DNA of 64,000 bases from Escherichia coli (GCF_001677475.2 NZ_CP015229.1); one strand, 5' to 3'. Counted from the stretch's first letter, positions 17,108-60,321 are shown. The notes: generated from the sequence alone by a model not told the origin. Numbers and translations are program-made.

Positions 17108-17574
17108 ACAACCACCTCGCTGATAAATTTTACGCCGTCGGCGGTGCGCAGCCAGCGCGGGGCTTTGAGTCCTTCCATGAAATACCAGACCAGTTCACAC
17201 AACAGCCCGGTCAGGGTTTGTTCCGTTTTTGGTTCCGCCGGGCGTTCCAGCAGAAGCTGGAGTAGTGCGAGGCAGTATTCGCACAAGGAATCTGGTTCGG
17301 AAATAAAGTGCTCTGGTGTGGCGGGAAGGGTATCAACGGTCAGGCTTTCAATCAGATGCGGCGGGATGGGGTCGTGCAGCGTGGGGTGCAATAGCGCAAG
17401 AGCCGCGTGAAGCCGTCCGCAGAGCGCTAGCCGTAGCGCGGGATCGTCGGTTTCGATCAGGGTTTCGGCGAAGCGGGCGCAGTAATCGGCAAGGACAGTA
17501 AAATCCGTGGTGGCATTGAAGGGGGCGGACAGCAGATCGAGTAAATCGCAGTCAGGGGTGAGGGTTGTAGCCAT
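17104..17574 (-). CDS. Hypothetical protein, 156 aa, acidic and Leu-rich, no recognised domain
   Basis: ORF with an AGGAGA Shine-Dalgarno about 7 nt upstream of the ATG at 17574 (longest ORF starts at 17628); stop overlaps the ATG of the Ner-like fragment (ATGA); GC-rich relative to the neighbouring RT gene. Confidence 0.5.
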   Translation of the reverse strand: MATTLTPDCDLLDLLSAPFNATTDFTVLADYCARFAETLIETDDPALRLALCGRLHAALALLHPTLHDPIPPHLIESLTVDTLPATPEHFISEPDSLCEYCLALLQLLLERPAEPKTEQTLTGLLCELVWYFMEGLKAPRWLRTADGVKFISEVVV

Positions 17575-17917
17575 AGGGCGTCTCCTGTAACGGTTTATTA
17601 TGTCCGCCACTAGAGAGGCTAATCTCATGGGGGGCGGAACCGGACGGGGTTAGCCTTACCGGCGTTACAGGAAACCGGCGCGTCTTGCGACGCCCCCGCC
17701 CGGCCCGCCATTGAGGTGTAGCCGAACGCACGACACAAAAAAGACGCTGGTGCGTCAAGTGTCGCCTGTAACGGTTTTCAGGAGGCTAATCCCGACGCCT
17801 GATTTTGCAGGCGCGGGAGAAAGATACTGCGATTGGTCATGAGTGGCAAGGGCTACATCCTGTTTACCGACATCTCACGCAAAAATACCCTGATTATTAA
17901 TAGCGAAAATCAGTTTC

Positions 17918-20900: not shown

Positions 20901-21127
20901 CGAAATTTGCCAATCAACTTCTTATTGCTACTGAATCCATCTTCGCTCTGCAAAATATCTAAGAGTTCTTGCAGGTTTTCAATTAATTCCTGCTCATACT
21001 CGGCAAATTTGATAGCAACAGGAAATGTATTCTCAAAGAAGCTATCGGCTTTGGCTTTCCGGTAAGCGACCAGAAGGTCTTCAATCGTCAGATCATCCCA
21101 GCCAGTGAAAGTTGCCTGATATGTCAT
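17918..21127 (-). CDS. Reverse transcriptase fused to a C-terminal nitrilase (CN-hydrolase) domain; UG/Abi-type defence-associated RT (DRT type 1 / UG1-like architecture)
   Basis: 1069 aa. RT motifs: motif A ASLDLKSYYHFID, motif B GLVIGLTASRIISNILL, motif C YGRYVDDMFLV (about aa 310-320). C-terminal ~280 aa carry a nitrilase-like Glu/Cys pattern (VLFPELSIP ... GVMICSELQ). AT-rich gene in an island next to a tRNA. Confidence 0.85.
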   Translation of the reverse strand: MTYQATFTGWDDLTIEDLLVAYRKAKADSFFENTFPVAIKFAEYEQELIENLQELLDILQSEDGFSSNKKLIGKFRLLPKKLTTKKKHEFQNGHVHFSNPKRAADHLFNNFDLIPEFRIIGDFPVDSHIISALWINMVGHKFDASLDNCCYGARLKRIRNDELFSNEQDNPFHISAVGSFSPYFQPYQKWRGDGLKAIRDELEKDRDIIAASLDLKSYYHFIDPLAITSDDLYNTLNIKLTEHEKAFTAQLAVFLKHWSDGAAAFGKKIAYKTPVINGGLVIGLTASRIISNILLHHWDKLVIEKLSPIHYGRYVDDMFLVIRDTGKITNNHEFMLLLQDRLGNDCVYLKNEKKQIWQIQQGEHFQGKTTIQLQSDKQKLFVLQGRAGIDLLDSIEKEIYELSSEHRLMPSPDQLEHSTAAKVLSAAGSVGENADTLRRADGLTIRRLGWSLQLRYVETLARDLSPSEWKEQREEFYQFAYNHILRADNLFAHFSYLPRLLGFAISMNEWQHAEKIVLKAYESINLLASVITSGKEVTINGCKTRAVNDLWRCIKGTLSWLFVDAATRYYSPDRLFLDKRSKKEECLADTFFNHISQSLTNLKDLLDLRFDSADFYLKAPLVARADLAKEPYKQIVKSQSAEKLVNQRDRKKEVKILKLMRDSSLIDIDVIKLFLKSTKNTRLEKVAKGNRKNESYLPYIFPTRPLTPAEISELAPECVGLPSTSDKKPDERPSTVWAKYTQALRGVWIKPTLLASEQDSDEATKKARPKKFIHIGTDRKHKIVVALTSIKTEEDDWAKMACNKSNLSRSRYQRISELVNATLKLSPKPDYVLFPELSIPLRWVNSIADRLSSAGISLIAGTEYRHLGDNQLKSEAVLVLSDNRLGYPASVKIWQPKLEPAVGEDEALFSTYGKSWDSTLNVKQRKPVYIHHGVNFGVMICSELQNSKARIRFQGALDALMVLSWNKDLDTFASLIESAALDIHAYTILVNNRKYGDSRVRSPAKEPFMRDIARVKGGDNDFVIAATLDIDSLRAFQSRAKRWPKGGDKFKPLPEGFQLAKNRKKLPPK

Positions 21128-42496: not shown

Positions 42497-43084
42497 TTAA
42501 CTGGTCCAGGTAGCGTCGAACTGTACGCTAACGTCGCCGCTCCAGATGCCTTCCGGTAGAGTGCTGTAATCGGTTACTGCGGTGGTACCATTGGTGGTGC
42601 CGCTGATGATGGAGAAGGTGAAACCATCCTGTGCGGTGGTACGATTGCTGGCATTGTAACCGTTAGCCAGCGGGCTAAGGTTGCCGCCCAGTACGCCGTT
42701 GGCGGTATCGATCATCACGGTATCGCCAGTTTTTTCGACTGCCGCGCCGTTATAATCCACGCCCACATTCAGTGTGGAACCTGAGGTATCCAACTGGGTT
42801 AATGTGTTGGTGATAAGACGTGAGGTCAGTTTAAAGGCGGTAGCCGTTGAGTCACCCTCGATAGCCACGTCAAATAGACCTTTCTGTGAGTTAAAACCTT
42901 TAATGCCTTCGGCATACTGGAACGCCAGGCTACCGAGTGGCGTCACAACCAGTTTACTGGTGGTGTCTTTTTTGGCTGTTGCCGACCAGGTCGCTACAGC
43001 CTGAGCTGTTACGTCAGCAGCCTGCGCCACACCCATGCCGGTAAACACCGTTACCAGAGCTATTGCCAGAACCTTTTTTTTCAT
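42497..43084 (-). CDS. ecpA: E. coli common pilus major pilin EcpA (MatB)
   Basis: 195 aa; [30 protein letters not shown]... recalled as EcpA. Confidence 0.9.
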
Positions 43085-43158
43085 TGCATTTCTTCCCGAG
43101 TTGAATTGAGGACGTGATGTCCCTGTGAGTCATTTTTTAAAACTAACTTGCCTGGAGT

Positions 43159-43770
<612 letters not shown>

Positions 43771-44150
43771 TTACAGGTGCATTCAGTTTCATTAGTAAAC
43801 CGGAAGTAAATAAGATACGTAGCACATATCAATAAAGGTTAAACGAGATTAAGTTTAATTATTTTCGATTGGGCTTAAATTTATGTTTTTTTCCCGATGA
43901 GTGTCAATATGTGAACGGAAAAGGAATTCAATGGTTAAGTCAATATTTAGAAAAACTGAAAATATTGCTTTTTTGATAAGAAGAAAAAGACATTTGGTTT
44001 CATAAGGTTATTGGCAATATAACGTTCATTTCTTACTTGCATTTTATATTGGTCAGGAATTTTGCCCTGAAGTGTTAGGAATAGTCTTAATGCGCTGTGT
44101 GATGGACTAGTAAAAAAACAAGTTTTAAGGGTAAGGGATAGAATATAAAA

Positions 44151-44378
44151 CTATGATGAGCTGCCATTGAAGATGATTTGCCAATCAGTAAGATATTTTA
44201 ATGGATTAACATGCCGCACAAAATGGTTATAGGTGTTCATTCCAATAAGTGATGGAAAATTGAACCGGGTTATGTACATCATCTGTTCGGTAAGCCCCCT
44301 AAGAGCCAAATTAAGTGAAGTTAAACGAAGGCTGCCAGCTGTCACAGGAACGATGGCCTTTTTGTCAGGGCACTGCAT
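44151..44378 (-). CDS. ykgL: Small hypothetical protein (YkgL-like)
   Basis: 75-aa ORF between ecpR and ykgO, where K-12 has ykgL; no domain recognised. Confidence 0.4.
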   Translation of the reverse strand: MQCPDKKAIVPVTAGSLRLTSLNLALRGLTEQMMYITRFNFPSLIGMNTYNHFVRHVNPLKYLTDWQIIFNGSSS

Positions 44379-44673
44379 TCAGTCATCTGTGCGCATTACT
44401 CTAACTGGCACTCGAACGTCGGCGATGGGGTTGCCGGTGGATCAGGCTGTTCCTGTGGCGTAAACGTTTTTATGTTAGTACCAACAGATTTACCACATTT
44501 ATCATCTTAACAGTTTGAGTGAAAATGCAGGCTGCGCCGCAAAGGGAGGAGACTGAGTGGCGTGTTCAGTCTAAAAGAGAGTTGATGCCAGCATACAGGG
44601 GCGAAGCTGGTCAACAAGTCAACATTAAGATAATGGAATATTCGGAGAGAAACGTCAGGCAGTTGGCCTCAAA

Positions 44674-44784
44674 TGAACAGGAAGAATATATCCCCAGGAA
44701 AATTAATGTTGGTGTTATAAACACACCAACATTAATCCGATCTGATTATTAATCAGACAAATATCGTTAATCCGTCGAATTTTG
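44674..44784. repeat. Intergenic repeat module, split copy, first half
   Basis: Matches 26032-26140 (ATGAACAGGAAGAATA...CCGTCGAATT); ykgO/ykgM follow directly. Confidence 0.7.
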
Positions 44785-44786
44785 AA

Positions 44787-44927
44787 TCAACGTTTTTTCT
44801 TACGACCCTGAACGGCCTTAAAACGTGGATTAGATTTACAAATCACATATAGCCGTCCTTTTCGCTTCACAATCTGACAGTCTGGATGGCGTTCTTTTGC
44901 GGTACGCAGAGAGTTAAGGACTTTCAT
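44787..44927 (-). CDS. ykgO: 50S ribosomal protein L36 paralogue, zinc-independent type
   Basis: 46 aa [46 protein letters not shown]; start overlaps the ykgM stop by 1 nt. Too short for the ORF track; found by manual translation. Confidence 0.9.
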
Positions 44928-45193
44928 CACGCCCCCTTTTTCGTGCTAACAAAACGACCAAAACGTTGGGTGAATCGTTCAACATTTCCTTCTGATGCCA
45001 CTGTTCTCAGCTTCCCTGTATAGAACGGGTGCGATTTAGAAGAGACATCAATTGTCACGTACGGATACGTTACGCCATCCAGCTCAATCTCCCGGTCTGT
45101 TTTGATAGTCGAGCCGATTTTAAAGTACTCATCAACACTGGTGTCGTGGAACACCACAGTACGATACTCAGGATGGATATTGGGTTTCATCAT
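44927..45193 (-). CDS. ykgM: 50S ribosomal protein L31 paralogue, type B (zinc-independent)
   Basis: 88 aa starting [19 protein letters not shown], no Cys zinc ribbon; Zur box immediately upstream. Confidence 0.92.
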
Positions 45194-45198
45194 TTTTA

Positions 45199-45221
45199 CC
45201 TGTTATGTTATAACATAACCG
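45199..45221 (-). promoter_or_regulatory. Zur box in the ykgM promoter
   Basis: Near-perfect palindrome TGTTATGTTATAACATAAC 6-28 bp upstream of the ykgM start. Confidence 0.85.
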
Positions 45222-45477
45222 TAAAGATACATGCTCATCCGGATCATTTCAACACCCAATCCCTGTGACCCTTTGTGGATGTGGAATTTCCGCAACGGGG
45301 AACTCTGGCATTGTTAGCAGCCATTGGTGACGCTCCCATAAACGCCTGGATGAGTGATTGATGATGGTTTTGCTGAGAGTATGGATTTTTCGAGAATGGA
45401 GGTTATCTCTACTTTACTGGCCGATGATTTATCGCAGTATGATTGATTACCTGACAGCGTGTATTCCTCTCCCACGG

Positions 45478-45622
45478 ATATAATAATTACTTACAAAAAG
45501 GGAGAGGATGCATATTTTAAATATCACTGAAGTGAACAGTTTATTGCCGTTATTAATAGAAATGGAGAAATAAATAGGCGTATTCTACAATTGCGACAAA
45601 AACAACGATATTAATCAGTTTA
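45478..45622. repeat. Intergenic repeat module, split copy, second half
   Basis: Matches 26141-26297 (TATTTTAAATATCACTGAAGTGAACAGTTTATTGCCGTTATTAATAGAAATGGAG...AACAACGATATT). Confidence 0.7.
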
Positions 45623-46135
45623 TGACTGATTTGTTGTACTTTATTCTCTTTCATTGGTACTTCCTCGCTTTAAAAAAGAGTGCACTTCGTAAGTGCCCTT
45701 ATATAAATAACGAGTTTGGTCAACCAATTTTTTGACATGTATCACAAATTTGAATAGATGTATTACATCAACTATCTTTTATTGCACCAACGTCATTGAT
45801 ATATGTCGCCTGAAGTCAGTTCCGGGAATGAGTCTGATCTCAAGATTGGCCCAGTCCTGGCGTTGATTGGCGCTGAGGAGCATATCGCATCTCATCATAA
45901 TGTCGTATCTCCTGGGGTGTTATACAAGATATCGTTGTTGGTGACCTGGGAGAGGAATTGAGTTCTATTAAACCGTCAACTATGCCGGATACATACTGGA
46001 TTACACTGCAGGCACGCCTTATGAGAGAACGTGCCGCAGTGACGGGTTAATTATCTGAAAGAATTTGTGAGGCTGTATCGGTTACTCATTGATTTGATAG
46101 TTTTACTCTCGGGAGAGTAATAGATATTTAATCCA

Positions 46136-46379
46136 TTAACGGAAACCAGTGAGTTCCTTTCGATGTCTGAATTTCCTTGGCGTGACATAGGTATATCCTG
46201 TAATTACTAAACCAATATTTTGTGAGCGACGTTTATAATATTCGAGTTCTTGCTCAGAGATGGTTCCATCAGGATTAGCTGACCAGGTCGTCATAGGAGC
46301 CATAACGATACGATTACATGGCTTTGTTTTTTTCTGTCAGCATAAAAGGAGGAAACAGTGATAAGTGTTTATTTGTCAT
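46136..46379 (-). pseudogene. Old-yellow-enzyme/NADH:flavin oxidoreductase family N-terminal remnant (frameshifted, truncated)
   Basis: Manual translation gives MTNKHLSLFPPFML... then, after a frame change, MAPMTTWSANPDGTISEQELEYYKRRSQNIGLVITGYTYV, resembling the OYE N-terminus (xMAPMT...EYY...GLIIT); stop after about 55 codons. Confidence 0.35.
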
Positions 46380-46672
46380 GACAATACCTCAAATGTTTAT
46401 CTGATTTTGATGCGTATATTTTAACTGGTTAGTTGTTACCAGCTTTGGAACCAAGATTTTTGGCTTTGTTTTTATTTATAATTACTGTTAGTGCTTTTAT
46501 TGAATTTATGGTGGAGAAAAGAGTAAAAAAAGAAAGTTAATGATGTGTGTCAGAATATCGGTAAGAAGAATGACGCAATCGTGAGGATACGTTTATTCAT
46601 AATAAATCTCCTGAAAGTTTAGAATTATTTTCTATACAGCCAGATTATCATTGTTACTAATAATGTGGTTAA

Positions 46673-48616
<1,944 letters not shown>

Positions 48617-49165
48617 TTATCGTTCATGAGAAGCATAACGTAAAGAGAAGAGCTCGATTAGACGGCAGGATTTGTCAGGGGTTATGAACGAAATTCATAA
48701 ATCTGTTTGAGTGTTGCGATGGGTAGTGCAAGTTCGATATCTCCGCAATTTACAGTCCGATGAAGGAAAATGAATATCCATAAAAAATATATTGGTTTAT
48801 CCTGGTATATATACCTATTTCGACGTATTTCCAATAGTTGTTAATTAAAGGCAGGTCATTATTATTCACTCTGAATAATGAATTATTCACTGTCCGCAGA
48901 GTAAAAATATAACTTAGGTATCTATTTAATGACTTGCACAAAAAGCTAAATTTTCACCCATAAATAAAAATATAATCCCGCGCCCAACCACCTGATGAGT
49001 GGCTACAGGCACTGGATATATTAGGTGGCGGTGTACTTTCTTACATAAAGGTATTTCCTTTTCTGCGGAAAAGGAAACCGGGAAATCCCCGGCTTTTCTG
49101 ACAAGCAGACACCATTATTTGTGTCTGCCTATGTTCGTTAATTCGTTCATCAGGAAATTATCTCA

Positions 49166-52100
49166 ATGTCACGTTATAAAACAGGTCATAAACAACCACG
49201 ATTTCGTTATTCAGTTCTGGCCCGCTGCGTGGCGTGGGCAAATATCTCTGTTCAGGTTCTTTTTCCACTCGCAGTCACTTTTACCCCAGTAATGGCTGCA
49301 CGTGCGCAGCATGCGGTTCAGCCACGGTTGAGCATGGAAAATACCACGGTAACTGCTGATAATAATGTGGAGAAAAATGTCGCGTCGTTTGCCGCAAATG
49401 CCGGGACATTTTTAAGCAGTCAGCCAGATAGCGATGCGACACGTAACTTTATTACCGGAATGGCCACCGCTAAAGCTAACCAGGAAATACAGGAGTGGCT
49501 CGGGAAATACGGTACTGCGCGCGTCAAACTGAATGTCGATAAAGATTTCTCGCTGAAGGATTCTTCGCTGGAAATGCTTTATCCGATTTATGATACGCCG
49601 ACAAATATGTTGTTCACTCAGGGAGCAATACATCGTACCGACGATCGTACTCAGTCAAATATTGGTTTTGGCTGGCGTCATTTTTCAGGAAATGACTGGA
49701 TGGCGGGGGTGAACACCTTTATCGACCATGATTTATCCCGTAGTCATACCCGCATTGGTGTTGGTGCGGAATACTGGCGCGATTATCTGAAACTGAGCGC
49801 CAATGGTTATATTCGGGCTTCTGGCTGGAAAAAATCGCCGGATATTGAGGATTATCAGGAACGCCCGGCGAATGGTTGGGATATCCGCGCAGAGGGCTAT
49901 TTACCTGCCTGGCCGCAGCTTGGCGCAAGCCTGATGTATGAACAGTATTATGGCGATGAAGTCGGGCTGTTTGGTAAAGATAAGCGCCAGAAAGACCCGC
50001 ATGCTATTTCTGCCGAGGTGACCTATACGCCAGTGCCTCTTCTGACACTGAGCGCCGGGCATAAGCAGGGCAAGAGCGGTGAGAATGACACTCGCTTTGG
50101 CCTGGAAGTTAACTACCGAATTGGCGAACCTTTGGCGAAACAACTCGATACGGATAGCATTCGCGAGCGTCGGGTACTGGCAGGCAGCCGCTATGACCTG
50201 GTTGAGCGTAATAACAACATCGTTCTTGAGTACCGCAAATCTGAAGTGATCCGTATTGCTCTGCCTAAGCGTATTGCAGGTAAGGGCGGGCAGACGGTTT
50301 CCCTGGGGCTTGTGGTGAGTAAAGCAACTCACGGTCTGAAAAATGTTCAATGGGAAGCGCCGTCTTTGCTGGCCGCAGGCGGAAAAATTACGGGGCAGGG
50401 TAATCAGTGGCAAGTGACGCTCCCGGCTTACCAGGCAGGCAAAGACAATTATTATGCGATTTCTGCGGTTGCCTACGATAACAAAGGCAATGCCTCAAAA
50501 CGCGTGCAGACAGAGGTGGTCATTACCGGAGCAGGTATGAGTGCCGAGCGCACGGCGTTAACGCTTGACGGTCAGAGCCGTATCCAAATGCTTGCTAACG
50601 GTAGTGAGCAAAAGCCACTGGTGCTTTCTCTGCGCGACGCCGAGGGGCAGCCAGTCACGGGCATGAAAGATCAGATCAAGACTGAGCTGACGTTCAAGCC
50701 AGCTGGAAATATTGTGACTCGTACCCTGAAGGCCACTAAATCACAGGCAAAGCCAACTCTGGGTGAGTTCACCGAAACTGAAGCAGGGGTGTATCAGTCT
50801 GTCTTTACTACCGGAACGCAGTCAGGTGAGGCAACGATTACTGTTAGCGTTGATGGCATGAGCAAAACCGTCACTGCAGAACTGCGGGCCACGATGATGG
50901 ATGTGGCAAACTCCACCCTGAGCGCTAACGAGCCGTCAGGTGACGTGGTTGCTGATGGTCAGCAAGCCTACACGCTGACGTTGACTGCGGTGGACTCCGA
51001 GGGTAATCCGGTGACGGGAGAAGCTAGCCGCCTGCGACTTGTTCCGCAAGACACTAATGGTGTTACCGTTGGTGCCATTTCGGAAATAAAACCTGGGGTT
51101 TACAGCGCCACGGTTTCTTCGACCCGTGCCGGAAACGTTGTTGTGCGTGCCTTTAGCGAGCAGTATCAGTTGGGCTCATTACAACAAACGCTGAAGTTTG
51201 TCGCCGGGCCGCTTGATGCAGCACATTCGACCATCGCCCTGAATCCGGATAAACCGGTGGTTGGCGGTACAGTTACGGCAATCTGGACGGCAAAAGATGC
51301 CAATGACAACCCTGTGACCAGCCTCACGCCGGAAGCGCCGTCATTAGCGGGTGCCGCTGCTGTAGGTTCTACGGCATCGGGCTGGACAAATAATGGTGAT
51401 GGGACGTGGACTGCACAAATTACTCTCGGCTCTACGGCGGGTGAATTAGAAGTTATGCCGAAGCTAAATGGACAGGATGCGGCAGCAAATGCGGCAAAAG
51501 TAACCGTGGTGGCTGATGCGTTATCTTCAAACCAGTCGAAAGTCTCTGTCGCAGAAGATCACGTAAAAGCCGGCGAAAGCACAACCGTGACGCTTATTGC
51601 AAAAGATGCACATGGCAACGCTATCAGTGGTCTTTCGTTGTCGGCAAGTTTGACGGGGACCGCCTCTGAAGGGGCGACCGTTTCCAGTTGGACCGAAAAA
51701 GGTGACGGTTCCTATGTTGCTACGTTGACTACAGGCGGAAAGACGGGCGAGCTTCGTGTCATGCCGCTCTTCAACGGCCAGCCAGCAGCCACCGAAGCCG
51801 CGCAGTTGACGGTCATCGCCGGAGAGATGTCATCAGCGAACTCTACGCTTGTTGCGGACAATAAGGCTCCGACCGTCAAAACGACGACGGAACTCACCTT
51901 CACCGTGAAGGATGCGTACGGGAACCCGGTCACCGGGCTGAATCCAGATGCACCAGTGTTTAGCGGTGCCGCCAGCACGGGGAGTGAGCGTCCTTCAGCA
52001 GGAAACTGGACAGAGAAAGGTAATGGGGTCTACGTGTCGACCTTAACGCTGGGATCTGCCGCGGGTCAGCTGTCTGTGATGCCGCGAGTGAACGGCCAAA

Positions 52101-53419
52101 ATGCCGTTGCTCAGCCACTGGTGCTGAACGTTGCAGGTGACGCATCTAAGGCTGAGATTCGTGATATAACAGTGAAGGTTAATAACCAACTGGCTAATGG
52201 ACAGTCTGCTAACCAGATAACCCTGACCGTCGTGGACAGCTATGGTAACCCGTTGCAGGGGCAAGAAGTTACGCTGACTTTACCGCAGGGTGTGACCAGC
52301 AAGACGGGGAATACAGTAACAACCAATGCGGCAGGGAAAGTGGACATTGAGCTTATGTCAACGGTTGCGGGAGAACACAATATTTCCGCTTCGGTGAATG
52401 GTGCTCAGAAGACGGTCACGGTGAAATTCAACGCGGATGCCAGCACCGGTCAGGCAAACCTGCAGGTAGACGCCGCTGCTCAAAAAGTGGCAAACGGCAA
52501 AGATGCCTTTACGCTGACGGCGAACGTTGAGGATAAAAATGGTAACCCTGTTCCAGGGAGCCTGGTGACCTTTAATCTGCCCCGGGGTGTCAAGCCGCTT
52601 ACAGGCGATAATGTCTGGGTGAAAGCCAACGATGAGGGGAAAGCAGAGTTGCAGGTGGTTTCAGTGACTGCCGGAACGTATGAGATCACGGCATCGGCAG
52701 GGAATAACCAGCCTTCGAATACGCAGACTATAACGTTTGTGGCCGATAAGGCGACCGCAACCGTCTCCGGTATTGAGGTGATTGGCAACTATGCACTGGC
52801 GGATGGCAAAGCCAAACAGACGTATAAAGTTACGGTGACTGATGCCAATAACAACCTGTTGAAAGATAGCGAGGTGACGCTGACTGCCAGCCCGGCAAAT
52901 TTAGCTCTGGATCCCGATGGGACGGCGAAAACTAATGAGCAAGGGCAGGCTATTTTCACCGCCACGACCACTGTCGCAGCGAAATATACACTCACGGCGA
53001 AAGTGGAACAGGCCAACGGTCAGGAATCGACGAAAACTGCTGAATCTAAATTCGTCGCGGATGATAAAAACGCGGTGCTCGCCGCATCATCTGATGTGAC
53101 TTCTCTGGTGGCGGATGGGGTACAGACCGCAACAATGACGGTTACCCTGTTCTCGGCAAATAACCCTGTTGGGGGGAATGTGTGGGTCGACATTGAGGCT
53201 CCGGAAGGAGTGACGGAGAAGGATTATCAGTTCCTGCCGTCGAAAAATGACCATTTCGTGAGCGGGAAAATCACGCGTACATTTAGTACCAGCAAGCCTG
53301 GTGTCTATACATTCACATTTAACGCCCTGACCTATGGCGGGTACGAAATGAAGCCAGTGAAGGTGACCATTACCGCGGTGGATGCCGATACGGCAAAGGA
53401 CGAGGAGGCGATGAAGTAA
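49166..53419 (+). CDS. fdeC: Intimin/invasin-family outer-membrane adhesin, full length (FdeC / EaeH)
   Basis: 1417 aa; N-terminal beta-barrel anchor region followed by many Ig-like repeat segments (recurring ...VTLTA/VTVTD...GNPV... blocks); position corresponds to K-12 eaeH. Confidence 0.88.
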   Translation: MSRYKTGHKQPRFRYSVLARCVAWANISVQVLFPLAVTFTPVMAARAQHAVQPRLSMENTTVTADNNVEKNVASFAANAGTFLSSQPDSDATRNFITGMATAKANQEIQEWLGKYGTARVKLNVDKDFSLKDSSLEMLYPIYDTPTNMLFTQGAIHRTDDRTQSNIGFGWRHFSGNDWMAGVNTFIDHDLSRSHTRIGVGAEYWRDYLKLSANGYIRASGWKKSPDIEDYQERPANGWDIRAEGYLPAWPQLGASLMYEQYYGDEVGLFGKDKRQKDPHAISAEVTYTPVPLLTLSAGHKQGKSGENDTRFGLEVNYRIGEPLAKQLDTDSIRERRVLAGSRYDLVERNNNIVLEYRKSEVIRIALPKRIAGKGGQTVSLGLVVSKATHGLKNVQWEAPSLLAAGGKITGQGNQWQVTLPAYQAGKDNYYAISAVAYDNKGNASKRVQTEVVITGAGMSAERTALTLDGQSRIQMLANGSEQKPLVLSLRDAEGQPVTGMKDQIKTELTFKPAGNIVTRTLKATKSQAKPTLGEFTETEAGVYQSVFTTGTQSGEATITVSVDGMSKTVTAELRATMMDVANSTLSANEPSGDVVADGQQAYTLTLTAVDSEGNPVTGEASRLRLVPQDTNGVTVGAISEIKPGVYSATVSSTRAGNVVVRAFSEQYQLGSLQQTLKFVAGPLDAAHSTIALNPDKPVVGGTVTAIWTAKDANDNPVTSLTPEAPSLAGAAAVGSTASGWTNNGDGTWTAQITLGSTAGELEVMPKLNGQDAAANAAKVTVVADALSSNQSKVSVAEDHVKAGESTTVTLIAKDAHGNAISGLSLSASLTGTASEGATVSSWTEKGDGSYVATLTTGGKTGELRVMPLFNGQPAATEAAQLTVIAGEMSSANSTLVADNKAPTVKTTTELTFTVKDAYGNPVTGLNPDAPVFSGAASTGSERPSAGNWTEKGNGVYVSTLTLGSAAGQLSVMPRVNGQNAVAQPLVLNVAGDASKAEIRDITVKVNNQLANGQSANQITLTVVDSYGNPLQGQEVTLTLPQGVTSKTGNTVTTNAAGKVDIELMSTVAGEHNISASVNGAQKTVTVKFNADASTGQANLQVDAAAQKVANGKDAFTLTANVEDKNGNPVPGSLVTFNLPRGVKPLTGDNVWVKANDEGKAELQVVSVTAGTYEITASAGNNQPSNTQTITFVADKATATVSGIEVIGNYALADGKAKQTYKVTVTDANNNLLKDSEVTLTASPANLALDPDGTAKTNEQGQAIFTATTTVAAKYTLTAKVEQANGQESTKTAESKFVADDKNAVLAASSDVTSLVADGVQTATMTVTLFSANNPVGGNVWVDIEAPEGVTEKDYQFLPSKNDHFVSGKITRTFSTSKPGVYTFTFNALTYGGYEMKPVKVTITAVDADTAKDEEAMK

Positions 53420-53455
53420 TTTTAAGAATATGAAAGTAGCATTCTAATAAACATT

Positions 53456-53482
53456 AATGGCGTTGACATATTCAACGCCATT
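53456..53482. terminator. Bidirectional hairpin between convergent fdeC and ykgA
   Basis: AATGGCGTTGACATATTCAACGCCATT stem-loop flanked by A/T runs. Confidence 0.65.
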
Positions 53483-53538
53483 ATTATTGAATTTCCAGAC
53501 AGTAGTCTCGTTATAAATTCATTTAGATATAGCGACAA

Positions 53539-54429
53539 CTAAACCGGACGAACGGGGATAAAAATTTCGCAAACAACATCATTGCTATCCTTTTCTACGA
53601 AATCTTCATTGTAATAAAACCGCTCAATATCACTGCCGTTGACTCTGGCTAACCCCCTGGCGGGTAATTCCATCAGATAGAGGTTTCGCGCCCATTCAGG
53701 GTAGTGCTCCCACTCACCTTCATAGCGGAAAGAGGCATACAGTCCTCGGTTAATTGTCCACTCTTTCGGCATCTCTGAATCGGTTTGTTTGCATACCGTA
53801 CCGGCAAAAGTTTCAACCGTGAGCAAATCGACCGATTTTGTTGACGGTTCAAACGTGGAGACGAAATAGATATCCGTCTTAAAATTCTTCATACATCTGG
53901 CTAAATGATGACGTCGTAGTTTGACTTCTTCATCCGGTGATTTAATCGACACTTCAATGTCATATTTAAATGAGTTGCCAAAAATAGGTGTCTCAGGAAA
54001 GTTGACTAATCTACACTCCGTCTTTTGCTGTTGACGTATTAAAAAAGAAGGGAAGATATTTGCGAGATCCCAATAATCACGGTGGCGGTATTCACGGGGA
54101 GAGCAGCGGAATAACTTTTTAAATTCGCGGCTGAATGACTGCTGTGAATCAAAATGCAAAGAGAGTGCAATATCAAGCATAGATTTCGCGGTGAGCCGGA
54201 CAAGAATGGCGGCACGACAAAGCCTTCGTTTGCGAATGTATTCTCCCAAAGGCACATGCATGAAATTTCGGAACAGAAGCTGGATGTTGCGTCTGCTGTA
54301 GCCAGATTTCTGTGCGATATCTTCGATTGAAATAGGGTGCTCAAGATTGCACTCAATCCACTCCAGGAGCTGCTGTAGAATCTTCTGCCTGATCATCACA
54401 TTCTCCATTAATTCTTCGTCATATCGCAC
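53539..54429 (-). CDS. ykgA: AraC-family transcriptional regulator with C-terminal effector domain
   Basis: 296 aa, N-terminal AraC HTH (IEDIAQKSGYSRRNIQLLF...SQQSFSREFKKLFRCSP). Confidence 0.8.
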   Translation of the reverse strand: MRYDEELMENVMIRQKILQQLLEWIECNLEHPISIEDIAQKSGYSRRNIQLLFRNFMHVPLGEYIRKRRLCRAAILVRLTAKSMLDIALSLHFDSQQSFSREFKKLFRCSPREYRHRDYWDLANIFPSFLIRQQQKTECRLVNFPETPIFGNSFKYDIEVSIKSPDEEVKLRRHHLARCMKNFKTDIYFVSTFEPSTKSVDLLTVETFAGTVCKQTDSEMPKEWTINRGLYASFRYEGEWEHYPEWARNLYLMELPARGLARVNGSDIERFYYNEDFVEKDSNDVVCEIFIPVRPV

Positions 54430-54629
54430 ATTTTCGTTATGCCCTGGGCCCTAAGTGTATCAAAAACAGCAAGGCCGAAGGCAAAAGTACTGGTAGCGTC
54501 TGCTTCGTTGTCCCCGAAAATAGAGAGGTTTCAGTCCTACATTATTAATGAATTTTTTGCATAAGTGATATCAAAATCCACATACTAATTTGAGGTTACG
54601 TTTTAACGTAGACTCATTGTTCATGCCTA

Positions 54630-55514
54630 ATGGAGGGACTGACAGTGGAATTTTCCGTATTAAGTAACAATCTGAAAATGCCGATGATGGGATTTGGTGT
54701 TTTTCAGGTTACCGATAAAAACGTGTGCAAACAGTCAGTGTTGAACGCTATCCGCACGGGTTATCGACTCATCGACACTGCAGCGGTATACGGTAATGAA
54801 GATGCCGTCGGTGAAGCCGTTCGTGAAGCTATATCTGAAGGTTTATGTACCCGAGATGAGTTATTTATAACGTCTAAATTGTGGGTGCAGGATATGTTGA
54901 ATCAGGATACGGCAGCAGCAGGTATTGAAGCATCATTAAAAAAATCGGGACTAGAATACTTCGACCTCTATTTATTGCATCAGGCTATGCGCGATTATTT
55001 CAGTGCGTGGCGTGCACTCGAAGATGCCTATGAAGAGGGCAAATTAAAAGCAATTGGGGTTTCCAATTTCTACCCTCATGTTCTGGCGAACTTTTGTGAA
55101 ACGGTAAGAGTTAAACCGATGGTCAACCAGGTCGAGTTGCATCCCTATTTTGCCCAACCAGAGGCGCTGGCAACCATGAAGTATTATAACGTGCAGCCTG
55201 AAGCATGGGCTCCGTTAGGTGGGGGACGACATAAACCCTTTGAAAATAATCTGCTTCAGAGTATTGCAGATGCCCATCAAAAATCGATTTCTCAAGTCAT
55301 TCTGCGTTGGAATATTCAACGGGGAGTGGTCGTTATTCCGAAATCGATACATCAACAGCGTATCGAAGAAAATTTTGCTATCTGGGATTTCTCACTGACA
55401 GAGAAAGAAATGGCACAAATTAGTTCGCTTGATTTGGGTTATGTTGGGGAGTCGGTAAAACATTTTAATCCTGAATTTGTTCGTGGTTGTCTTGCTGTAA
55501 AAATACATGATTGA
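54630..55514 (+). CDS. Aldo-keto reductase, paralogue of the gene at 47750-48601
   Basis: 294 aa, MPMMGFGVFQVTD...[14 protein letters not shown]; exact start uncertain. Confidence 0.8.
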   Translation: MEGLTVEFSVLSNNLKMPMMGFGVFQVTDKNVCKQSVLNAIRTGYRLIDTAAVYGNEDAVGEAVREAISEGLCTRDELFITSKLWVQDMLNQDTAAAGIEASLKKSGLEYFDLYLLHQAMRDYFSAWRALEDAYEEGKLKAIGVSNFYPHVLANFCETVRVKPMVNQVELHPYFAQPEALATMKYYNVQPEAWAPLGGGRHKPFENNLLQSIADAHQKSISQVILRWNIQRGVVVIPKSIHQQRIEENFAIWDFSLTEKEMAQISSLDLGYVGESVKHFNPEFVRGCLAVKIHD

Positions 55515-55673
55515 TATTAATCATGTATTTTACCTGAGACAACAAGAATCTTTTAACAGGGGAGTGATATTGATCTTCACTCTGTCATATCTCCGGTAAT
55601 ATGGCGTCAGGCTTCATCATCAGAAAGGGGGCCTGACGCCTGAAAAAGTGAACAACAGACAGTGTTCTGATTA

Positions 55674-56267
55674 TCAATCTTCAGTTTTTAACGTTGAACT
55701 GGATTCATTACTGTGTTGTTTAAGAATGTCCCGCGCCGAATCTGCCATTATCATGACAGCACCTGCCAGCATCAGAGTATCTTTCAATACCAGACGACCA
55801 GCACCAGATAAATAAGGGAAACCATGATGAGCGTCACCCAATGCGGGTACCCATGCCTCCGGGGTGGTGATTAAAAATGAGAGTGTTACCAGCGGCGTGG
55901 TAAATGCCATCAGCCCTCCCAATAAACCTAACCAGCGATTGACAGGATTAGCCAAAACCAGCAGAGCAATAATCACCTCCACGATGCCAAGACCGTTGGA
56001 AAAACCATAGGTATTATTAGCCGTTTGCCATGCCCTTGCTTCTGGTTTGTATTCGCCTTCGTGAGTCAGATACTGTTTATAGTCTTCTGGGTGTTCATAA
56101 AAGAACGACATTAGTGGACTGTTTGCGACGAATGGTGTAATGCTGTCTGCCTCGTAAGGGACAAACTTTAATAACCCAATCCACATAAAAACAATCGCAA
56201 TACTCAGACGAATCAATGTCAGGCCAATTTTATCTCCCCGACTTAACAGGTGCAGGTATCTTTCCAT
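55674..56267 (-). CDS. rclC: Reactive-chlorine resistance membrane protein RclC (DoxX-like)
   Basis: About 197 aa, multi-pass membrane protein; downstream of rclB. Confidence 0.85.
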   Translation of the reverse strand: MERYLHLLSRGDKIGLTLIRLSIAIVFMWIGLLKFVPYEADSITPFVANSPLMSFFYEHPEDYKQYLTHEGEYKPEARAWQTANNTYGFSNGLGIVEVIIALLVLANPVNRWLGLLGGLMAFTTPLVTLSFLITTPEAWVPALGDAHHGFPYLSGAGRLVLKDTLMLAGAVMIMADSARDILKQHSNESSSTLKTED

Positions 56268-56278
56268 TGTAAACATCC

Positions 56279-56515
56279 TTATTTATACAATACTGCTGTT
56301 GCGGTTGAATTATTATCAATTCGCATCGATGTGACTTTCCAGGATGAAGCATTATATTTTTTGGCCATATCAGCAATGGCATCCTCCAGAACTGTCGGTG
56401 ATGCTGATACTGACGAGACGCTGATATGTTTCAGAATTATTTTATCATCTGCATTGGTGGAAAATGCCATAACGCCAGATAATAGTGTTGCAAATAAAAC
56501 AGATTTTTTAAACAT
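56279..56515 (-). CDS. rclB: Reactive-chlorine resistance periplasmic protein RclB (DUF1471)
   Basis: 78 aa from MFKKSVLFATLLSGVMAFSTNA (signal peptide); the ORF extension to 56563 runs into the IS end. Confidence 0.8.
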   Translation of the reverse strand: MFKKSVLFATLLSGVMAFSTNADDKIILKHISVSSVSASPTVLEDAIADMAKKYNASSWKVTSMRIDNNSTATAVLYK

Positions 56516-56563
56516 ATAAAATACCATCAATGAAGTGATTAAGAAGTTAGGTAGTGCATCCAA

Positions 56564-56959
56564 TTAGTAGAACATGTGTTTTTCGATAAACGCTCCGATC
56601 ACTTTTTCGTGGATCTCAACTGAGCGTGAGAAGCAGATTGTTTTACGAGCCAACCGCTTAATGCGGGTGCGTAGCGTCAGATTATTACGCTCAATGCGTT
56701 GGGTGAATATTTTGCCGGTCAGATGCTTATTCTTCGGCACCTCCCGGCCATAGCTGCCCCAGTCATCGCTGGTCAGCATGCCGATGTTGAAGGGTGTAAG
56801 CAGTGCCAGTAGCTCCCGGCACGTTTGATCGGTTCGGGGACCAAAAGTGTAGGCCAGTACACCGCCTGTTTTGGTGTTGTACGCGTACCAGAGCCAGTGT
56901 TGCCGGGCTTTACTGCCAACGTAGCTCCATTGCTCATCAAGCTCGCAGATAAGCGCCAC
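56564..56959 (-). CDS. insB: IS1 transposase InsB' (ATG-bounded part; the InsAB' fusion frame extends upstream by frameshift)
   Basis: 131 aa with IS1 InsB similarity (DEQWSYVGSKARQ...YTQRIERNNLTLRT...). Confidence 0.8.
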   Translation of the reverse strand: MALICELDEQWSYVGSKARQHWLWYAYNTKTGGVLAYTFGPRTDQTCRELLALLTPFNIGMLTSDDWGSYGREVPKNKHLTGKIFTQRIERNNLTLRTRIKRLARKTICFSRSVEIHEKVIGAFIEKHMFY

Positions 56960-56985
56960 ATCAGCATGGGCAACAGGCGAAGACG

Positions 56986-57258
56986 TTATTCGCTTTGGCG
57001 CGAGTTTTTTAAAGTCCGGATGACGGTGTTAATACCAATTTTCAGTGTCCTGGCGGTATCGCGAACCCCGGCACCATTAAAGGCCATTTCAGTTATCAGC
57101 TCTTTCATACCCGGCTTACGTGCTTGATAAGTATAAGTGAGCTGAAACACACGGTGGCAGTCACGGCAGCGAAATCTGTCACGGCCTTTAGGGTTCTGAC
57201 CATGGCGGTAAACCTGAGCTGACTGACAACGGGGACAATGAATATTAACGCTGGCCAT
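56986..57258 (-). CDS. insA: IS1 protein InsA (zinc-finger/HTH transposition regulator)
   Basis: 90 aa MASVNIHCPRCQSAQVYRHG... with CxxC...CxxC and HTH; divergent from K-12 IS1A InsA but clearly the same family. Confidence 0.85.
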   Translation of the reverse strand: MASVNIHCPRCQSAQVYRHGQNPKGRDRFRCRDCHRVFQLTYTYQARKPGMKELITEMAFNGAGVRDTARTLKIGINTVIRTLKNSRQSE

Positions 57259-57397
57259 GAGATAACCTCAAAAGCCCGTATTATACATCAGATTCAACTA
57301 ATTAGAGACATCACCAGAAGTTATAAAGTAACAGGGAATTAATAAGATTCTTTTCTCTGAGACGCCAGAATATTTGTTCTGGCGTCTGATTTTGAGT

Positions 57398-58723
57398 TTA
57401 TTTAACTAATGAAAATAGATCATTGAGTGATTCGCTCATCGACGGATGAGTAAATATCTGATCGCGTAATATGCTATAAGGCAGCCCGGCATCCATCACC
57501 ATTTTCACTATATTGATCATCTCGTGGGAGTCAACACACAGCAGTGATGCTCCTAATATACGTTGGGTTTTATTATCAACAATCGCTTTTAATACCCCAC
57601 GGGTATCGTTCATCACTCTTGCGCGCGGAATTGCAGCTACAGGCAATGTCACCACCTGAATATCAGCACCACTCTCTCTGGCCTGTTCTTCTGTCATACC
57701 AACCCTGGACAGTGGCGGTGTCATGAATACGGAATAAGGCACATTTTTCCGATCATCAGTACTACGTCTGCCTTCTCCCAGCAACTCATCACGCACAATG
57801 CGGTAATCATCCAGTGAAATATAAGTAAATTGCAGCCCGCCGGTAACATCTCCCATCGCCCAAATATTGTCTGCGGTGGTATGTAATTGCTTGTCAACGA
57901 CAATTGCCCCACGTTCGTTTACTGCGATACCTGCATTTTCTGGATGTAACGAAGCGGTAGCCGGTTGACGACCGGAAGCTATTAACAGTGCATCCACCGC
58001 CAGTTGGGCGTGCTCGCTATGCACTTGCACTTGATTTTCATGGTGACTGATTCGCTCCACATGGGCATTGAGGATAATATCGACGCCCTGATCGCGTAAA
58101 ATCGTCGCGATATTATCAGCAATATCCCGATCTTCCCGAGGCAAAAACAGCGAAGCTGCTTCTAAAATGGTTACCTTGCTGCCAAAATTAGCGAACATAG
58201 AGGCGAACTCAACGCCAATATATCCGCCGCCCAAAATACCTAAATGCCCAGGCAATTCTTTTAGATTAAGTAATCCGGTGCTGTCATATACACCAGGCGT
58301 GGTGGTAATTCCAGGAATTGGCGGAACCACGGTTTGTGCACCGGTATTAATAAAAATTTTCTCGCCATGAATCTCCAGATTTCCCTCAGGCCGATGAACA
58401 CGCAGGCTATTATTATTGATAAACTCCGCCTGGCCGTCGATCACGTCGATATTGGGCATATCCGCAAGATTATGAAAATTCTTATTACGTAAAAAATTAA
58501 CCACTTCATTTTTACGCTGTATGGCACGGACAAAATCTGTGTGCTGCTGTGCGTCATGAACCAATGTTTTGGTTGGGATGCAGCCGATATTAATACAGGT
58601 CCCGCCATACATTGCATTTGATTGTTCGATGAGAGCCACTCGCCAACCTGCTTTTGCCAGCGTGACGGCTAATGTTTTTCCCGCCTTGCCAAAACCAATA
58701 ATAACTGCCTGATATTTATTCAT
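57398..58723 (-). CDS. rclA: Reactive-chlorine resistance flavoprotein disulfide reductase RclA
   Basis: 441 aa from MNKYQAVIIGFGKAGKTLA; FAD-binding GxGxxG and redox-active CxxxxC (GGTCINIGCIPTK). Confidence 0.9.
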   Translation of the reverse strand: MNKYQAVIIGFGKAGKTLAVTLAKAGWRVALIEQSNAMYGGTCINIGCIPTKTLVHDAQQHTDFVRAIQRKNEVVNFLRNKNFHNLADMPNIDVIDGQAEFINNNSLRVHRPEGNLEIHGEKIFINTGAQTVVPPIPGITTTPGVYDSTGLLNLKELPGHLGILGGGYIGVEFASMFANFGSKVTILEAASLFLPREDRDIADNIATILRDQGVDIILNAHVERISHHENQVQVHSEHAQLAVDALLIASGRQPATASLHPENAGIAVNERGAIVVDKQLHTTADNIWAMGDVTGGLQFTYISLDDYRIVRDELLGEGRRSTDDRKNVPYSVFMTPPLSRVGMTEEQARESGADIQVVTLPVAAIPRARVMNDTRGVLKAIVDNKTQRILGASLLCVDSHEMINIVKMVMDAGLPYSILRDQIFTHPSMSESLNDLFSLVK

Positions 58724-58948
58724 GATGATTTCCTGTCGAAACGCGTTCATTTGACATCATGACTATAGACGCAAAAGAGCAAATAACATTTCTTCACAAC
58801 GCTTGATATTTTGTCTTATCGTCTGGTATTTTCTTTTTCTTAATCAGAATCACAAAACAAAAATCATGATTAACTATTTGATGATATTACATTAATTATT
58901 TACTAAGATTGTTGGTGTTTGTAATCAAAAACCACTCAGGAGTCTGAT

Positions 58949-59803
58949 ATGGATGCCCTTAGCCGTTTGTTGATGCTTAACGCTCCACAAGGAACGATCG
59001 ATAAGAATTGCGTGTTAGGAAGTGACTGGCAGCTTCCACATGGTGCCGGGGAATTATCGGTTATTCGTTGGCATGCGTTAACGCAAGGAGCGGCGAAGCT
59101 GGAAATGCCGACGGGAGAGATTTTTACATTACGCCCGGGAAATGTGGTCCTGCTACCACAAAATTCAGCTCATCGCCTGAGTCATGTCGATAATGAATCG
59201 ACCTGTATTGTCTGTGGCACTCTTCGGCTGCAACATTCGGCGCGTTATTTTTTAACGTCTTTGCCGGAAACGCTGTTTTTAGCACCAGTTAACCACAGCG
59301 TGGAATATAACTGGCTGAGGGAGGCGATCCCGTTTTTACAACAGGAATCCAGATCGGCGATGCCGGGAGTGGATGCACTGTGTAGCCAGATCTGCGCTAC
59401 ATTCTTTACCCTCGCGGTGCGTGAGTGGATTGCACAGGTTAATACTGAGAAAAACATTCTCAGTTTGCTTCTGCATCCACGTCTTGGTGCGGTAATACAG
59501 CAAATGCTGGAAATGCCAGGACACGCCTGGACCGTCGAATCGCTGGCCAGCATCGCCCACATGTCCCGGGCAAGTTTTGCCCAGCTTTTCCGTGATGTTT
59601 CCGGAACCACGCCGCTGGCTGTATTAACAAAGTTGCGTCTACAAATAGCGGCCCAGATGTTTTCCCGGGAAACGCTCCCTGTTGTGGTGATCGCTGAGTC
59701 AGTAGGCTATGCCAGTGAATCATCTTTTCACAAGGCGTTTGTCCGCGAGTTTGGTTGTACCCCGGGCGAATATCGGGAAAGGGTCAGACAGCTTGCACCC
59801 TGA
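58949..59803 (+). CDS. rclR: Reactive-chlorine-sensing AraC-family activator RclR
   Basis: 284 aa; C-terminal AraC HTH; divergent from rclA. Confidence 0.88.
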   Translation: MDALSRLLMLNAPQGTIDKNCVLGSDWQLPHGAGELSVIRWHALTQGAAKLEMPTGEIFTLRPGNVVLLPQNSAHRLSHVDNESTCIVCGTLRLQHSARYFLTSLPETLFLAPVNHSVEYNWLREAIPFLQQESRSAMPGVDALCSQICATFFTLAVREWIAQVNTEKNILSLLLHPRLGAVIQQMLEMPGHAWTVESLASIAHMSRASFAQLFRDVSGTTPLAVLTKLRLQIAAQMFSRETLPVVVIAESVGYASESSFHKAFVREFGCTPGEYRERVRQLAP

Positions 59804-60321
59804 ATAAAACCGCCAGGAATCGGAGCAAAGATAATCCGCATTCCGGGTGTTGTGAGCCTTTCAGCTATTTATATTTCCAGGTTTTTTATATGTTTTTTTG
59901 AAGTGGTCTGGCTTAGTAATTAAATAAAAGATACAAACTAAATTGCTTCAATTAAATAAAATCCCGACTATTACTTGATACGTGATTATTGTCGGTAATT
60001 TTGTTTGTACACCATCAGTGTATATCTCAATAACCCCTGAATAAGTAGCTCTGAATAGGTATAAGGGATGTAGCCATTTTTAAATGGATTTCTTATGCCA
60101 AAAATGATCGTCGATTTCCCCATAAAATGTGAGCGATGCCGAAAGAAATAAAATTAGTTATTGCATTTGAAGTTTGGATGAAAGATTATCATTTGTCATA
60201 CAAATGAGGGGTGGTATGTTGCTAGCCAATTAAAAAAGAACGCCATATTTATTGATGATTGCTCCCCCGGAAGGGGGGAACCATCGGGCATAAATGGGCA
60301 TGAAGTAATGGAGTATTAGTT

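Follow-up and report, generated by a model that had tools for sequence, protein, structure and literature searches.

An intact fdeC (eaeH) orthologue in a reduced fdeC cluster of Escherichia coli

Does a long reading frame flanked by two aldo-keto reductase (AKR) genes represent an intact copy of a known adhesin gene, and what accounts for the company that it keeps? The question is posed by a window of 64,000 nucleotides of E. coli DNA (the whole stretch analysed), in which an earlier note, made from the sequence alone, had seen a full-length FdeC/EaeH-type intimin-like adhesin bracketed by the products of a local duplication. Among E. coli adhesins, FdeC/EaeH is the prototype of the inverse autotransporter (type Ve) class, and it has been both characterised and put forward as a vaccine candidate. 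The best explanation of the locus as a whole, to which we give a probability of about 95%, combines an intact FdeC orthologue, flanking reductases of ancient and separate descent, and a cluster that has been reduced.

The adhesin gene and its predicted product

The gene and the parts of its product are as follows.

49166-53419, plus strand: fdeC, encoding an inverse autotransporter adhesin of 1417 aa (from ORF, Pfam and identity)
aa ~1-75 of FdeC: long N-terminal signal or periplasmic segment
aa 76-350 (nt 49391-50215): beta-barrel, Pfam IAT_beta (PF11924)
aa ~358-1417: passenger of tandem Big_1/Invasin_D3 Ig-like domains

The ORF call gives 1417 codons with no internal stop, as the earlier note had it, and frameshifts are absent, since the protein aligns end-to-end both with the RefSeq-annotated FdeC of E. 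coli PapRG-04-4 (96% identity, 0 gaps) and with FdeC of the uropathogenic (UPEC) strain NU14 (93% identity, 1 gap). The crystal construct of FdeC region B from ExPEC (PDB 4E9L) matches aa 595-1008 with E ~1e-250 and ~96% identity. These values (93%, 96% and ~96%) reach the full-length identity range of >91% given for fdeC among strains (PMC3324786). GenBank has an identical protein under ANO87489.1, 'inverse autotransporter adhesin FdeC [Escherichia coli]'. In NCBIfam no FdeC equivalog model was passed, and the highest-ranking models (IatC, Ilp and intimin N-terminal) each fell short of cutoff, so that orthology rests on identity together with synteny.

With regard to synteny, the site lies between ecpR-ykgMO-ykgR and ykgA-AKR-rclCBA and is collinear with K-12, PapRG-04-4, NY1601, NU14 and GF43, the rclABC-rclR locus bounding it on the side away from the ecp/ykgMO region. 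Gene order around fdeC is the same in PapRG-04-4, NY1601, NU14 and GF43 as well as in E. whittamii and Escherichia sp. E1V33. A degenerate barrel pattern, run against GTDB species representatives, finds three loci only, in the latter two and in E. coli E69, where the fdeC-like gene has a different context. From its identity and position, 49166-53419 is the orthologue of fdeC (eaeH) at the usual chromosomal site, in an ordinary locus. Coverage of at least 80% of the length of fdeC is present in 4585 of the 5426 complete E. coli genomes (~85%), and a complete gene was counted in 67% of 126 genomes in an earlier survey (PMC6714894). As a rule E. coli has fdeC intact, K-12 being the exception; an intact copy here is not notable. 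The best complete RefSeq genome is just ~97% identical to the window, and an origin in Shigella or a cryptic clade was weighed on that account, but exact protein matches (ANO87462, ANO87489, ANO87496) put the window in a GenBank E. coli chromosome.

The domain content is also pertinent. The Pfam IAT_beta match spans the full model (3-279 of 279; E = 7.5e-109), with Invasin_D3 in nine stretches and Big_1 in four, all C-terminal to the barrel, and a D-x-x-GNP motif recurs at a spacing of ~100 aa between aa 438 and 1226. Pfam found neither LysM nor Intimin_C domains in FdeC. A barrel followed by a C-terminal Big passenger places the protein in type Ve, and the ORF, the Pfam matches, the two alignments and PDB 4E9L jointly bear out the description that the earlier note had given of the adhesin. 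At the N-terminus (MSRYKTGHKQPRFRYSVLARCVAWANISVQVLFPLAVTFTPVMAARAQ) a basic stretch is followed by a hydrophobic one, with 2 differences from UPEC FdeC in the first 60 residues, and passage through Sec would be expected. After such export, the 12-stranded N-terminal barrel would go into the outer membrane, BAM and TAM assisting, and the Big domains, about ten Ig-like units in a C-terminal chain, would be threaded outward to give a long stalk that may bind collagens and epithelial cells and promote aggregation and biofilm. Published work describes 10 Big domains and enhancement of FdeC assembly by TAM (PMC4943183), and both collagen binding and induction of expression by host contact (PMC3324786).

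Reduction of the cluster, here and in K-12

The published fdeC locus has at most three regulators and five reductases or hydrolases (PMC3324786), and the locus in the window is a reduced form of it. Around fdeC the following are present.

46176-46471, minus strand: what is left of a gene for an NADH-dependent flavin oxidoreductase, counterpart of the K-12 'ykgP'-type pseudogene
46742-47635, plus strand: LysR-family regulator, 297 aa (Pfam HTH_1, LysR_substrate)
47666-47744, minus strand: remnant of AKR329, reduced to its final 22 codons and stop codon, together with the deletion junction
47750-48601, minus strand: AKR283, a DkgA-like AKR of 283 aa (Pfam Aldo_ket_red, E = 2e-50)
48602-49165, no strand: AT-rich divergent control region common to AKR283 (minus) and fdeC (plus)
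53455-53483, no strand: hairpin with a 12-bp stem, TAATGGCGTTGA-ATATG-TCAACGCCATTA, between the convergent fdeC and ykgA
53539-54396 (54429 with a GTG start), minus strand: ykgA, AraC/Rob-like regulator, 285 aa as annotated and 296 aa from the GTG
54645-55514 (start at 54630 in an alternative call), plus strand: AKR289, a DkgA-like AKR (Pfam Aldo_ket_red)

The oxidoreductase remnant has 93% identity to an internal part of the PapRG-04-4 gene (L001 601-895), and the annotation of NY1601 and GF43 treats its counterpart as a partial oxidoreductase pseudogene. The alpha/beta hydrolase gene and the first LysR gene, which come next in fuller clusters, are absent from the window. In most E. coli a third AKR, of 329 aa, sits between LysR and AKR283; in the window it is deleted, though the translation of what remains matches its C-terminus. 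The missing segment is of 921-931 bp, between imperfect 11-bp repeats CCTC[GG/TT]TTATC, and the gap is seen in alignments to L001, L003 and L005, with an 11-bp overlap at 47734-47744. This junction is rare, being present in one of 5426 complete genomes (GF43) and also in the draft contigs L004 and L006. Compared with the fuller cluster, the genome has lost the third AKR, the alpha/beta hydrolase, one of the LysR genes and the greater part of the flavin oxidoreductase. The third AKR had escaped the earlier note. An IS1 element lies in the neighbouring rcl operon.

In K-12, where fdeC is known to be a pseudogene (PMC3324786), the same locus and control region carry eaeH (b0297) together with IS3A, ykgA', ykgQ' and ykgP'. 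The first 292 codons of K-12 eaeH match the fdeC of the window with 97.7% identity, and the control region is kept from 48616 onward (97.5% identity). Four stretches of the window are missing: 46175-48615, with LysR and AKR283; 50042-53735, with fdeC from codon 293 to codon 1417 and the final 66 codons of ykgA (itself a pseudogene there), IS3 being in its place; and 54661-55245 and 55295-55385, both inside the downstream AKR, of which just fragments are kept, the K-12 pseudogene ykgQ corresponding to the intact AKR289. The earlier note was correct in taking K-12 eaeH to be truncated or disrupted, everything from codon 293 to the end being gone, and the comparison that it had proposed now defines the lesion. 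By this mapping fdeC in K-12 was truncated by an IS3-associated deletion that also took the 3' end of ykgA, LysR/AKR283 and most of the downstream AKR were lost in separate deletions, and decay of the cluster there has gone much further than in the genome of the window.

Could fdeC in the window nevertheless be an intact but silent relic, either permanently repressed or decaying as in K-12 and BL21? The locus is eroding, as the deletion of AKR329, the oxidoreductase remnant and the IS1 in the rcl operon illustrate, and standard in vitro conditions yield no FdeC expression (PMC3324786). However, a 4254-bp ORF that is free of stops and frameshifts and is 93-96% identical to functional orthologues, the occurrence of the identical protein in independent assemblies, on 24 contigs or more, and a control region that is 94-98% identical among E. 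coli strains together make such a relic unlikely.

The control region, regulators and reductases

The AT-rich upstream region of ~560 bp to which the earlier note had drawn attention is of 564 bp at 37.4% GC, which ranks it in the bottom 3.7% of segments of that length here; its minimum over 100 bp is 25%, at 48767-48866, and it holds many A/T tracts of at least 8 nt. The high-affinity H-NS motif TCGATAAATT, with up to 2 mismatches allowed, has 1 match in it, which is typical of any 564-bp window. That an AT-rich spacer is common to fdeC and AKR283 fits the published H-NS repression of fdeC, H-NS and temperature regulation in EHEC being attributed to Easton et al. 2014 (AEM 80:7337) in the citing papers (PMC6714894, PMC11143625), and the spacer is likely the site of that repression. 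Transcription of fdeC would start within the 564 bp and would usually be kept low by H-NS, with relief by temperature or host contact. Scans of 47600-54700, with shuffled sequence as the control, gave no excess of sigma-70-like consensus promoter matches, and no promoter is claimed; terminator-like matches over the same range were not above chance in number. The hairpin at 53455-53483 is a candidate bidirectional terminator of fdeC and ykgA. None of the Rfam families attained its gathering score when 43000-60000 was scanned.

The product of the LysR gene has YafC as its best NCBIfam model, below cutoff (157 vs 470 bits), and in syntenic genomes its RefSeq annotation is that of a LysR family regulator. 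YkgA has two HTH domains and a GyrI-like ligand domain (Pfam HTH_18, HTH_AraC and GyrI-like) with RobA as its best NCBIfam model, again below cutoff, and its position is backed by annotation in syntenic genomes. Of the idea that each AKR is paired with a divergent regulator, half survives: ykgA is divergent from AKR289, but LysR (plus) and AKR283 (minus) are convergent, tail to tail, and AKR283 is divergent from fdeC itself.

A further possibility is that fdeC works as one unit with the regulators and reductases beside it, YkgA and/or LysR sensing a small molecule (an aldehyde or electrophile, for example) and controlling fdeC via the spacer. The LysR-AKR-AKR-fdeC synteny does reach E. whittamii and Escherichia sp. 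E1V33, one divergent control region is common to AKR283 and fdeC, and the genes have been treated as one 'fdeC cluster' (PMC3324786). Yet many genomes with fdeC have independently lost its neighbours, O157:H7 and many others keeping it without the upstream LysR and AKRs and the window having lost AKR329, the E69 gene does without this context, and the one paper in the library searched that names ykgA and fdeC together is a genome-mining list. Such a unit is quite improbable. Very doubtful is the specific proposal that the conserved AKR283-fdeC arrangement, with LysR, the Rob-like YkgA and the reactive-chlorine rcl operon, couples the adhesin to host electrophile, aldehyde or oxidant signals; were it true, the so far unexplained induction of FdeC on 'host contact' would gain a mechanism.

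The reductases themselves have a different tale to tell from that first proposed for them. Genes for AKRs do stand on either side of fdeC where the earlier note had put them, but their relationship is not one of local duplication. It had named low identity as what would undo the duplication, and in substance this is what the pairwise comparison yields: the two proteins are homologous (E = 2e-86), yet at 44.7% identity they are about as far from each other as from the unlinked K-12 DkgA (42% for AKR283, 40% for AKR289). For both, DkgA is the best NCBIfam model, below cutoff (261 and 236 bits vs 425). Much closer orthologues occur in other genera, of 88-94% identity for AKR283 (Dickeya, Yersinia, Pantoea, Klebsiella) and of 79-85% for AKR289 (Klebsiella, Kluyvera, Enterobacter, Salmonella, Vibrio), so the split of the two long predates the locus. 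Composition differs as well (GC3 of 0.525 vs 0.383, AKR289 having a GC of 0.43), and the pair are not the mutual closest relatives, of high identity and similar composition, that recent duplicates would be. AKR283 and AKR289 are on this comparison separate, anciently diverged DkgA-like lineages, each of which may travel with its own unrelated regulator. That an AKR-plus-regulator module was duplicated locally, its two copies coming to bracket fdeC, is scarcely credible, for while both AKRs are in the DkgA-like subgroup, are marginally nearer each other than DkgA and adjoin a transcription factor gene, their identity is just 45%, their GC3 is unlike, their orthologues in distant genera (79-94%) put the split before the Enterobacterales, their regulators are non-homologous (LysR vs AraC/GyrI-like) and oriented unlike, one pair convergent and the other divergent, and the flanks are without a linking DNA-level repeat.

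The fdeC locus, its pseudogene state in K-12 and its control by H-NS are already published, and beyond correct annotation of the locus there is little significance. What the analysis does is to remove the AKR duplication story, to give exact K-12 breakpoints in the coordinates of the window, and to point to a genome carrying a reduced fdeC cluster with a rare AKR329 deletion.

Comparison with known systems

Among related adhesins, the invasin and intimin barrels (PDB 4E1T and 4E1S) match FdeC aa 113-357 with E = 5e-82 and 6e-71, and the Big-domain passenger (1CWV) is also common to intimin and Yersinia invasin. In contrast to intimin (EaeA), FdeC has in Pfam neither LysM nor the C-type-lectin Intimin_C, its stalk is much longer, and its gene is outside the LEE. 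Assignment as intimin itself was considered and rejected, the intimin_all model giving 378 bits vs a cutoff of 1400 and aligning only with aa 56-463, with LysM and Intimin_C absent.

The flanking reductases have their parallels in DkgA and DkgB (AKR5-type 2,5-diketo-D-gluconate or methylglyoxal reductases), with 40-42% identity to the former. The arrangement of genes also has parallels: in yqhC-yqhD-dkgA of K-12 an AKR is beside an AraC-type regulator, as with ykgA and AKR289, and in dkgB-yafC an AKR is convergent with a LysR-type regulator, as with AKR283 and LysR. Since AKR-regulator pairing recurs elsewhere in K-12, it is a common pattern and not evidence of duplication.

The nearest counterparts are the reference FdeC/EaeH proteins of ExPEC IHE3034 (ECOK1_0290), UPEC CFT073 and NU14, and ETEC H10407 (EaeH), of 1416-1417 aa as against 1417 aa here. 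On its upstream side the cluster is shorter in the window than in these references, and from NU14 the protein differs by allelic variation only, mostly in the C-terminal third from ~aa 1075. The order of domains, an IAT beta-barrel and then Big domains, is the same, as are the chromosomal site and the neighbours.

The adhesin gene and its setting

By its sequence relationships the long open reading frame at 49166-53419 is fdeC, alias eaeH, and it sits at the canonical chromosomal site of that gene, the order being ecpR, ykgL, ykgO, ykgM, ykgR, reductase cluster, fdeC, ykgA, aldo-keto reductase (AKR), rclCBA, rclR. The coordinates and basic gene descriptions of an earlier note on this DNA were correct; the families of the LysR-type gene, AKR283, ykgA and AKR289 are assigned by ORF and profile matches.

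Features of the fdeC locus (coordinates, strand, identity)
46742-47635, +, LysR-type gene
47750-48601, -, AKR283, an aldo-keto reductase
49166-53419, +, fdeC, 1417 aa, uninterrupted
53539-54396, -, ykgA, AraC/Rob-like with a GyrI-like domain
54645-55514, +, AKR289, the second AKR (294 aa if started at ATG 54630)

That the gene encodes a full-length FdeC/EaeH-type adhesin, as had been proposed, is borne out by the intact frame, by a gapless alignment at 96% identity with the protein of E. coli PapRG-04-4 that RefSeq names 'inverse autotransporter adhesin FdeC', and by Pfam matches to a complete IAT beta-barrel at aa 76-350 (E = 7.5e-109) with nine Invasin_D3 and four Big_1 stretches C-terminal to it; the Pfam search gave no LysM or Intimin_C domain. 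Solved invasin and intimin barrels match the barrel, and the crystallised FdeC region B (PDB 4E9L) matches aa 595-1008 (E about 1e-250), 17 of the 414 positions differing by our own count. The suggested alignment with a uropathogenic FdeC, that of NU14, gave 93% identity and one gap of a single residue. GenBank ANO87489.1 (FdeC, E. coli) is exactly the window protein, and identical FdeC is present on at least 24 contigs.

Megablast with the window gene as query found fdeC in 5078 of 5426 complete E. coli genomes, at least 80% of it being covered at one place in 4585 of those 5078. Published surveys agree: one reports a complete gene in 67% of a set of 126 genomes and in 83% of the ECOR strains (PMC6714894), and another has fdeC in 83-100% of natural isolates, both commensal/fecal and pathotypes, as against two of the seven laboratory strains classed as nonpathogenic (PMC3324786). 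Intact fdeC is the norm among E. coli, with K-12 the exception, and its state in the window is the ordinary, published one of a well-known gene. A different placement occurs in E. coli E69 (CP089930.1; locus L011), where an fdeC-like gene at 7066-8831 of that locus, of only 89% DNA identity, adjoins gadB, gadC, a GHL10 lipoprotein gene and dosC, away from the usual reductase cluster; it represents a relocation of the adhesin gene or else a second copy.

With respect to the strain itself, identity to long stretches of the window tops out at about 97% among complete RefSeq E. coli genomes, a ceiling that holds also for the core genes pepD, proA and frsA, yet the window-encoded proteins exactly match entries from a single E. 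coli chromosome in GenBank (ANO87462, ANO87489, ANO87496). Beyond AKR289, an IS1-family element (56550-57315; InsA 56986-57258, InsB 56564-56959, both on the minus strand) is inserted in the short rclA-rclB spacer with an 8-bp target duplication, AGAAGTTA; the insertion is recent, because L004, a draft contig with 99.99% identity, lacks it, and it probably exerts a polar effect on rclB and rclC. Elsewhere, a 1069-aa reverse transcriptase (17918-21127, minus strand) has a full-length PADLOC match to RT_UG5-nitrilase, a DRT defence reverse transcriptase (E = 0), and no match in Pfam; the same spot is annotated 'RNA-directed DNA polymerase' in several E. coli genomes. The neighbouring 174-aa ORF (17104-17628) had no match in Pfam or PADLOC.

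The flanking reductases and a reduced cluster

The sole interpretive claim of the earlier note that would have been new, local duplication of the bracketing AKR genes, is refuted by sequence comparison. The two DkgA-like proteins are homologous (E = 2e-86), with an identity of only 44.7%, hardly above that of each to unlinked K-12 DkgA (42.2% and 40.1%; DkgA and DkgB share 38.7%). Database searches, the decisive evidence, gave far closer orthologues in other genera, at 79-85% identity for AKR289 (Enterobacter, Klebsiella, Kluyvera, Salmonella, Vibrio) and 88-94% for AKR283 (Gibbsiella, Klebsiella, Dickeya, Yersinia, Tatumella, Pantoea, Serratia, and a Kluyvera plasmid), and the two lineages therefore split long before Escherichia. 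The gap in GC3 (0.525 for AKR283, 0.383 for AKR289) and the unrelated families of the adjoining regulators, LysR and YkgA, also tell against duplication. Since comparable pairs recur in K-12, where dkgB converges on yafC, a LysR gene, and yqhC-yqhD-dkgA has an AraC-type regulator, AKR genes commonly keep company with regulators, and such pairing is no sign of duplication. Nor are both pairs divergent, as had been stated: ykgA and AKR289 are, the LysR gene and AKR283 lie tail to tail, and AKR283 is instead divergent from fdeC. As a separate matter, the conservation of AKR283 protein, unusually high for hosts so distant, points either to spread by horizontal transfer or to constraint of great strength.

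Also overlooked was a third reductase, AKR329, between LysR and AKR283 in most E. coli, E. whittamii and Escherichia sp. E1V33 (329 aa, unrelated to AKR283 and AKR289, with which it shares 24-25% identity). It was lost from the window by a 921-931-bp deletion, with the last 22 codons surviving in a remnant region at 47666-47744 and the junction, 47734-47744, lying between imperfect 11-bp repeats, CCTC[GG/TT]TTATC. The junction recurs in only one of 5426 complete genomes, GF43, plus draft contigs; GF43 is about 96.7% identical to the window overall, ~3% diverged, yet has the same junction, and a contig encoding the identical FdeC protein (L005) still has AKR329. Further upstream, the flavin oxidoreductase gene has shrunk to a remnant of 296 bp, and two genes that the fuller cluster has, the hydrolase and the first LysR gene, are absent. 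On gene content, the locus is thus a reduced version of the published 'fdeC cluster', which can comprise as many as three regulators and five reductases/hydrolases (Nesta et al., PMC3324786).

Regulation and likely function

The AT-rich region of about 560 bp noted upstream of the adhesin is indeed there: the AKR283-fdeC spacer measures 564 bp and has a GC content of 37.4%, the value for the whole window being 49.4%; it falls within the lowest 3.7% of the window's 564-bp windows, five other stretches being equally AT-rich. In EHEC, H-NS reportedly represses fdeC and temperature modulates its expression (Easton et al. 2014, as cited in PMC6714894 and PMC11143625), with which such a spacer is consistent, and the same control would be predicted here. 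Beyond AT-richness, sequence tests contribute nothing on regulation: scans found consensus promoters at no more than chance expectation, no enrichment of the H-NS motif in the spacer and, with Rfam, no RNA families. At the other end of the gene, a perfect hairpin with a 12-bp stem (53455-53483), midway between convergent fdeC and ykgA, is a candidate bidirectional terminator.

By analogy with orthologues, the barrel would enter the outer membrane with help from BAM and TAM, as an orthologue barrel does (PMC4943183), and would export the passenger, some ten Big domains in series at the C-terminus. The stalk so formed may, like characterised FdeC, bind epithelial cells as well as collagens I, III, V and VI, and may promote aggregation, and expression may similarly be low in vitro and triggered by host contact (PMC3324786).

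The K-12 lesion

Disruption of K-12 eaeH, mentioned in the earlier note, is confirmed by alignment of the window to MG1655, from which the breakpoints of four lesions were taken. Missing from K-12 is 46175-48615, so that LysR and AKR283 are gone and a 'ykgP' remnant is left, the deletion ending 14 bp from the AKR283 start codon. Retained, at 97.7% identity, is 48616-50041, comprising the entire control region and fdeC codons 1-292. IS3A then stands in place of 50042-53735, where the window has fdeC from codon 293 to codon 1417 and the final 66 codons of ykgA, and two further deletions, 54661-55245 and 55295-55385, leave just the 'ykgQ' fragment of the downstream AKR.
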